Positions 7,929 through 8,591 of a DNA stretch of 8,591 nt are shown here, one piece after another. Within the stretch, counting starts at the first letter, position 1. Each line of letters starts with the position of its first letter. Position numbers and translations under genes: made by a program. Below the pieces are notes generated by a model. The model was given only the letters and a program-made list of their open reading frames with translations, was not told where the DNA came from and made no database searches. The stretch is from a virus (lineage: Duplodnaviria; Heunggongvirae; Uroviricota; Caudoviricetes). The DNA lies in the IMG/VR virus record IMGVR_UViG_2547132417_000018; one strand, 5' to 3'.

Positions 7929-7967
7929 AACCGCTAATGGCCAGATTAGCGGTTATTTTGTTTGCTC
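7929..7967. terminator. Bidirectional rho-independent terminator between convergent U and invertase genes
   Basis: Perfect 10-bp stem AACCGCTAAT (7929-7938), loop GGCCAG, stem ATTAGCGGTT (7945-7954), then ATTTTGTTTG. The invertase stop codon (7946-7948) lies inside the right arm of the stem. Confidence 0.6.
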
Positions 7968-8536
7968 TTCTCAATTGTTCCGCTTGATTCTCCTGCGGGG
8001 TGGTAACGATAAATCGTCGATGTACCAATGCCGTAAATTATTGCCAGTTGTTTTCTGTCGTGCCCGTTTTTAATCAGCCTTGCTATTTGCTCATTCTGTT
8101 CTTTTGTCAGCTTCGGGCGACGTCCGCCTGTGCGTCCTTGTGCGCGTGCTGCTGCCAGACCGGCCAGTGTACGCTCTACAATTAATTCACGTTCCATTTC
8201 AGCCAGGGCACCCATCACGTGGAAGAAAAAACGCCCCATTGGAGAAGATGTATCTATGCTGTCGGTCAGACTGCGAAAATTAATCCCTCGCTCCCGTAGT
8301 TCCCCGACGAGAGAAATCAGATGTTTCATGCTTCGCCCGAGGCGATCCAGTTTCCAGACAACCAGCGTGTCACCTTTTTGAAGGCGCTTTAAAGCGCGTT
8401 TTAATCCCGGTCGGTCTGTCTTTGTCCCGCTTAATTTATCTTCAAATATTTGTTCACATCCTGCACAAACAAGAGCGTTTCGTTGCAGGTCTGTATTCTG
8501 GTCATTTGTTGATACCCTTACATAGCCAATCAGCAC
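7946..8536 (-). CDS. Gin/Hin/Cin/Pin-family serine DNA invertase (site-specific recombinase), about 196 aa
   Basis: Translation from GTG at 8536 gives MLIGYVRVSTNDQNTDLQRNAL...TLVVWKLDRLGRSMKHL...FRSLTDSIDTSSPMGRFFFHVMGALAEMERELIVERT..., with the catalytic Ser in the YVRVST motif and a C-terminal helix-turn-helix region. Near-identical over the N-terminal two-thirds to Mu Gin and Salmonella Hin as recalled. SD GGGAG 7 nt upstream of the GTG. The track's longer start at 8560 is also a GTG with no better SD. Confidence 0.92.
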   Translation of the reverse strand: MLIGYVRVSTNDQNTDLQRNALVCAGCEQIFEDKLSGTKTDRPGLKRALKRLQKGDTLVVWKLDRLGRSMKHLISLVGELRERGINFRSLTDSIDTSSPMGRFFFHVMGALAEMERELIVERTLAGLAAARAQGRTGGRRPKLTKEQNEQIARLIKNGHDRKQLAIIYGIGTSTIYRYHPAGESSGTIEKSKQNNR

Positions 8537-8591
8537 GCTGAATCTCCCGTCCAAAAGCACAAATCATGCCATGCAGGCCAGAAACCGCCAT

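Follow-up and report, generated by a model that had tools for sequence, protein, structure and literature searches.

The window, by which we mean the whole stretch of 8,591 nucleotides analyzed here, was traced to its source by looking up the 196-amino-acid protein encoded near its right edge. Contig APZL01000149.1 of GCA_000356845.2 (hereafter L007), when reverse-complemented, matches the window exactly (L007:27-8617) and is among the 11 public contigs that encode this exact protein. The last 1.2 kb of the window has matches in 1,920 of 5,426 complete Escherichia coli genomes (in 621, the match spans 80% or more of the query), and its identity to phage P88 (genus Xuanwuvirus, Peduoviridae) is 97%. 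Over window positions 313-8591, the DNA identity to P88 is 94.9%, and loci L004 and L008 are each 99.0% identical to the window. The order ogr, D, sheath, tube, E, T, U, and invertase is common to the window and P88, and the same gene order is seen in E. coli prophages. Judging by gene order and DNA identity, the window is the tail module of a P2-type, P88-like (Xuanwuvirus, Peduoviridae) prophage. The features referred to below are as follows; the genes from Ogr/Delta to the tape measure were assigned from the ORF list and Pfam.

764-1024, minus strand: Ogr/Delta
1067-2197, minus strand: gpD
2333-3517, plus strand: sheath
3517-4029, plus strand: tube
4085-4459, plus strand: gpE-type chaperone
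4574-7416, plus strand: tape measure, split into two ORFs
7423-7917, plus strand: gpU tail protein, convergent neighbor of the invertase gene (PF06995, E 2.7e-39)
7929-7954, both strands: two-way intrinsic-terminator-like hairpin, common to gpU and the invertase gene (terminator scan)
7946-8536, minus strand: DNA invertase gene, 196 amino acids, ortholog of Mu gin (GTG start 8536-8534, stop 7948-7946)
7946-8122, minus strand: P88-lineage C-terminal DNA-binding (HTH_7) domain plus tail, about residues 139-196 (Pfam and alignments to Gin and Hin)
8177-8192, minus strand: approximate mosaic junction (alignment to Mu gin and counts of differences)
8452-8514, minus strand: candidate recombinational enhancer (two Fis-consensus 15-mers and identity to Mu gin)
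8510-8512, minus strand: codon of the catalytic serine, Ser9 (TCA; read from the sequence and aligned to Gin S9)
8537-8590, minus strand: leader of 54 nt between crossover site and start codon (sequence comparison)
8591, plus strand: first base of the invertase-proximal 26-bp gix-like site TTATCTAAAACCTCGGTTTACAGGAA, the remaining 25 nt of which lie in the source contig

The invertase ORF is uninterrupted and, by the longest-ORF rule, covers 7946-8560 on the minus strand (204 amino acids). The likely start codon is the GTG at 8536-8534, giving a protein of 196 amino acids that begins MLIGYVRVSTNDQ; the same GTG is the start codon of Mu gin and was chosen by the gene callers on the 11 public contigs. 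The first-pass annotation, which had been made from the window alone, described a full-length serine invertase, and the protein is indeed intact, with a Resolvase domain (PF00239, E 1.5e-50), an HTH_7 domain (PF02796, E 1.7e-13), and the catalytic Ser9, which aligns with S9 of Gin, the serine that is linked to DNA (PMC3575834). Further, Met114, which is replaced in the Fis-independent Gin used for crystallography (M114V; PMC3575834), is wild type in the protein encoded here. Overall protein identity to Mu Gin is 86%, and the best PDB matches are the Gin chains 4m6f and 3uj3 (E 1e-100), with the gamma-delta/Tn3 resolvases at E 1e-31 to 1e-28. By its sequence, the gene product is a DNA invertase of the Gin/Hin family (Din, small serine recombinase).

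The invertase gene had also been described as converging on U and sharing a terminator with it, and this agrees with the hairpin at 7929-7954, which scores as terminator-like on both strands. Located at the 28-nt gap that separates gpU from the invertase gene, the hairpin has a stem of 10 bp, a loop of 6 nt, and T-rich tails on both strands, and its right arm overlaps the stop codon of the invertase. At the other end of the gene, a consensus scan of the window and of the extended L001 sequence (E. coli 99-3165) found no sigma-70 consensus promoter for it.

We searched the window for crossover sites by half-site score and with a degenerate 26-mer (3 mismatches at most), and found no gix/hix-like 26-mer lying wholly within it. 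This is what the first-pass annotation had reported, save that the T at 8591 turned out to be base 1 of a complete site. L007 extends 26 nt past the right edge of the window, and T 8591 together with the next 25 nt reads TTATCTAAAACCTCGGTTTACAGGAA (L007 2-27), so that the contig ends 1 nt beyond the site. The edges of the window coincide with the edges of gene calls on L007, the right edge being the start of a 29-amino-acid call (L007 27-116) whose ATG lies just after the crossover site. This call overlaps the invertase start and is probably spurious; because the window is thereby cut after the first base of the site, any scan of the window alone must miss it. TTATCTAAAACCTCGGTTTACAGGAA is identical to Mu gix at 25 of 26 positions, and in the Mu G segment TTATCCAAAACCTCGGTTTACAGGAA is present at both annotated boundaries. 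The site lies 54 nt upstream of the invertase start codon, and the distance from its center to the start codon, 67.5 nt, is the same in Mu. The same 26-mer is also present in L001, in P88 (L002), in L004-L006, which are three genomes with the identical invertase, and in L008 and L010-L013.

A partner site, in inverted orientation and inside a tail-fiber gene, is found 2.7-3.1 kb from the proximal one in L001, P88, and L004-L006, that is, in five loci of which three encode the identical protein. The distal site is TTATCGAATACCTCGGTTTACAGGAA, with a variant ending ACGAGAA in L006, and is identical to Mu gix at 23 of 26 positions. Each of these relatives has exactly two sites, and a shufflon layout, which calls for a third, was rejected for them on this count. 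By comparison with the relatives, the partner site is presumably present in the source genome itself.

Between the two sites, the relatives carry a tail-fiber C terminus lacking its 5' part, a Caudo_TAP chaperone gene, a second chaperone gene opposed to it, and the 3' part of the complete tail-fiber gene. An invertible tail-fiber segment had been predicted just beyond the right edge of the window, and it is there that the proximal site begins, at 8591, with the partner site and the cassettes following in the genomes that encode the identical protein. The comparison of L004 and L005, which have the same invertase at the same insertion site, is the most direct. Their flanks differ at 2 of 6,993 and 0 of 10,645 positions, and the 2,953-nt segment between these flanks is the same in both but oppositely oriented. 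After one copy is flipped, the two differ at 7 positions, and 4 of the 7 are outer half-site positions 6 and 9. These half-site positions stay with the flanks, which places the exchange between site positions 9 and 28, the central TC included. The tail fiber is 760 amino acids long in one orientation and 788 in the other and is uninterrupted in both; the two versions are identical through residue 474, at the site (...IEYLGLQE), and each has its own Caudo_TAP chaperone gene behind it. The two junction types are found in 129 and 227 complete E. coli genomes, respectively, at 80% coverage or more. The comparison of relatives thus shows a natural inversion between the two sites. We note that the segment and the Mu G segment have about 2.1 kb of DNA in common at 92-93% identity (L001:13192-16264, L004/L005:6994-9946, and L003:1455-4538), indicating that the tail-fiber switch is a module common to Mu-type and P2-type phages. 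One cassette end varies between prophages.

The places at which the draft contigs stop bear on whether inversion occurs in culture. The source contig L007 breaks off at site position 27, as do L008 and L011, two independent Logan contigs; in L004 and L005, the first difference between the two arms is at position 28. Likewise, L009 ends at site position 21, one base short of the first difference between the arms of L006 (position 22), a locus with the chromosomal neighbors of L009. If Logan contigs are taken as the product of de Bruijn assembly with k around 31, the 18 or 12 nt that the arms have in common would not suffice to collapse the k = 31 graph, and we infer from this that the cultures behind L007, L008, L009, and L011 held reads of both orientations. 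Draft contigs that end where the repeat arms first differ would thus be a usable sign that both orientations are present in a culture.

These observations also bear on readings that would separate the invertase gene from tail-fiber switching. The Resolvase/HTH_7 architecture is common to the invertase and the gamma-delta/Tn3 resolvases, and the gene could on that account be taken for a transposon or plasmid resolvase, or for a Tn-type 'Bin/Pin', without any tie to tail fibers. However, the resolvases fall far below Gin among the structure-database matches, the gene sits inside a conserved phage tail module beside inverted gix sites, and the ORF list holds no transposon genes near it, so that we give this reading practically no credence. 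A different case is that of an orphan remnant in a decaying prophage, which would have kept the proximal site and lost the partner site and the segment. The tape-measure gene speaks for decay, as the loss of 1 nt from a C/G run near 5785 splits it into overlapping ORFs of 414 and 540 amino acids, and the source contig stops right after the proximal site, short of any partner. In relatives with the identical invertase, the tape-measure gene is intact (935 amino acids). The break could be either a real inactivating mutation or, as a single-base deletion in such a run, a sequencing error of the draft assembly; given the deletion, this prophage copy may be defective, in which case host-range switching would be moot there. 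Against the loss of the segment, neither the invertase ORF nor the proximal site is damaged, both being identical to their counterparts in complete prophages, and the base at which the contig stops is the one at which the L004 and L005 orientations diverge, as it is in the two independent assemblies. A stop at the divergence base is expected from mixed orientations and not from a deletion, and an orphaned invertase therefore seems to us unlikely.

The 5' part of the invertase gene, where the first-pass annotation had expected a Fis-dependent enhancer, was scanned for pairs of Fis sites with the degenerate Fis consensus KNNYRNNWNNYRNNM. The scan gave a candidate pair, consisting of TATCAACAAATGACC at 8500-8514 (gene nt 23-37) and GTGCAGGATGTGAAC at 8452-8466 (gene nt 71-85). 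These Fis-like 15-mers are 48 bp apart, center to center, and the proximal one lies about 97 bp from the center of the gix site. A spacing of 48 bp between Fis sites is the rule for invertase enhancers; no statement of it, or of the Fis consensus, was found in the Hin literature that we searched. A Fis-like pair at exactly 48 bp arose in 52 of 5,000 dinucleotide shuffles (about 1%). Further, nt 1-110 of the gene are identical to Mu gin, with three differences in the first 180 nt, and going by the title of Kahmann et al. 1985, the enhancer of Mu gin reportedly lies within the gene. A Fis-type enhancer in the 5' part is plausible because this stretch is identical to Mu gin. In the Hin system, the enhancer lies about 100 bp from the nearer site (PMC3798978). 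The protein itself is in keeping with a response to Fis, as the alignment of the DNA-binding domains puts Q, R, and L at the equivalents of Hin Gln151, Arg154, and Leu155, residues that are uniquely conserved among invertases and have been proposed to contact Fis (PMC3798978). On these grounds, the invertase would be expected to depend on Fis and on the enhancer.

The likeness to Gin is unevenly distributed along the gene. Residues 1-119 are identical to Gin at 118 of 119 positions and residues 120-137 at 13 of 18, and the tail beyond residue 183 is unrelated. Over residues 138-183, 24 of 46 positions are identical, so that the divergence of the C-terminal 60 or so residues from Gin and Hin, which had been noticed from the sequence at the outset, stands. 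At the DNA level, a 60-nt stretch of the gene holds 0-7 differences from Mu gin as far as about nt 345-360 and 24-32 beyond that point, and a megablast match to Mu and D108 covers only window positions 8181-8591. The alignment thus places a clear mosaic junction near codons 117-120 of the invertase gene. Only P88-like phages carry the C-terminal variant at 90-93% identity; elsewhere it reaches 83% in one P1-like phage and otherwise about 50-58%.

It had been suggested, with some reserve, that this divergence might indicate a different site specificity, and the suggestion is not supported: the adjacent sites are identical to Mu gix at 25 of 26 and 23 of 26 positions. On the strongest form of the idea, the diverged domain has acquired a new specificity and acts on sites that are not of the gix type. 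The extent of the divergence from Gin and the confinement of the variant to P88-like phages at 90% identity or more would fit it. Against it, the natural inversion has its exchange point inside gix-type sites, the recognition helix STIYRY differs from STLYRY of Hin at a single position and keeps the S-T-x-Y-R residues, and a search of the window and its relatives gave no other gix-like or alternative repeated site. In addition, Gin and Hin are equally far from each other: the 45-amino-acid DNA-binding stretch is identical to Gin at 23 of 45 positions and to Hin at 25 of 45, and Gin and Hin agree with one another at 21 of 45. Gin and Hin are able to substitute for one another. Since the neighboring sites are of the Mu type and are the ones actually exchanged, nothing points to a new specificity, and we regard such a change as very unlikely. 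A milder version is a natural chimera in which the catalytic domain and enhancer of Mu Gin, joined near codon 117-120 to a P88-lineage DNA-binding domain, came perhaps with a wider or shifted choice of targets; we hold its chances to be slim. Were it true, the chimera might use secondary sites, or the invertible segments of co-resident prophages, in addition to its own gix-type pair.

Overall, we consider it highly probable that the gene encodes a Gin-type, Fis-dependent invertase of a P88-like (Xuanwuvirus, P2-type) E. coli prophage and that it flips a tail-fiber segment. Under this reading, dimers of the invertase would bind two 26-bp gix-type sites in inverted orientation, one beginning at the last base of the window and the other about 2.7-3.1 kb rightwards in the tail-fiber gene. 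A Fis-bound enhancer in the first 85 or so nt of the gene would join both sites in an invertasome. By orthology with Gin and Hin, Ser9 would then cut at the central TC, one pair of subunits would rotate by 180 degrees, and the DNA would be rejoined. Each flip would swap the last 290-315 or so codons of the tail fiber, together with the chaperone gene behind them, for the alternative cassette, and this swap would be expected to switch the receptor specificity, and so the host range, of the phage.

The system is already known, and the exact protein is present in public genomes under the names recombinase or DNA invertase. It is a tail-fiber host-range switch of the textbook kind seen in Mu, P1, e14, and P2-like E. 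coli prophages, and the value of the present analysis is mainly that of a correct annotation. Compared with Mu (and D108), the catalytic domain is nearly that of Gin, with 118 of 119 residues identical, Ser9 and Met114 included, and the layout is the same as in Mu: the constant part of the tail fiber, a site, two cassettes with chaperones, a site, and the invertase gene. The two differ in phage type, P2-type (P88-like) here as against the transposable Mu-type, in the C-terminal DNA-binding domain, which is only about 50% identical to that of Mu Gin, and in the distal site, which has two substitutions in its outer half-site compared with Mu gix. Moreover, the invertase gene converges on gpU here, whereas gin is followed by com and mom in Mu. 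Hin of Salmonella belongs to the same family, has the same mechanism, and likewise has its enhancer in the 5' coding region, but the hin gene lies inside its own invertible segment and switches a flagellin promoter, unlike the tail-fiber C terminus here, and hix sites differ from the present sites in core and half-site details.

The closest counterparts are P88 and other Xuanwuvirus prophages, which have the same gene in the same place, in the order U, invertase, invertible tail-fiber segment, and H. P88 is 97% identical to the window in DNA over U plus the invertase gene, has proximal and distal sites identical to those of this lineage, and shares the C-terminal variant (90-93%). The differences from P88 and Xuanwuvirus are only allelic, amounting to a few amino acid changes, other cassette alleles, and the frameshifted tape-measure gene here. 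P88 is a published inducible P2-like phage (PMC6456863). Inversion of tail-fiber segments by Hin-family invertases has been demonstrated by sequencing in e14, Mu-type, and P2-like E. coli prophages (PMC4272514). In the P2-like loci of EPEC E2348/69 and in e14 of K-12 (pinE), Hin-family invertases stand, as here, beside tail-fiber segments flanked by inverted repeats, and the two orientations are found together in clonal cultures (PMC4272514). An EPEC locus of the shufflon type has three repeats and four variants, whereas the relatives examined here have exactly two sites and two states.

The left part of the window offers some minor observations. The block from sheath through tube, E, and T to U (2198-7945) lies on the strand opposite to gpD and ogr. 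In P2, the gene order is FI-FII-E-T-U-D-ogr, and the sheath-to-U block of the window is flipped relative to it. This layout is common to all P88-like loci that we fetched and is thus a trait of the lineage; the idea that the invertase flipped the block is unsupported, no gix-like site being present at the block borders. After the gpE-type ORF comes a short GpE-family ORF (about 4468-4623), which overlaps the start of the tape measure and lies where the P2 E/E+E' programmed frameshift is usually located. The genes flanking the prophage end (in L001 and L004-L009) are tRNA-Leu/pgsA, VasI/Flk, serS and an AAA ATPase gene, or GGACT/TamB, and such variation between genomes indicates that closely related prophages occupy at least four chromosomal places. 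At this end of the prophage there is a 46-amino-acid ORF of the Hok/Gef toxin type (433-573, minus strand), annotated in relatives as a Hok/Gef family or MokW-like protein, and a cysteine-rich ORF of 93 amino acids (1-282, plus strand) without a Pfam match, the N terminus of which resembles a signal sequence.
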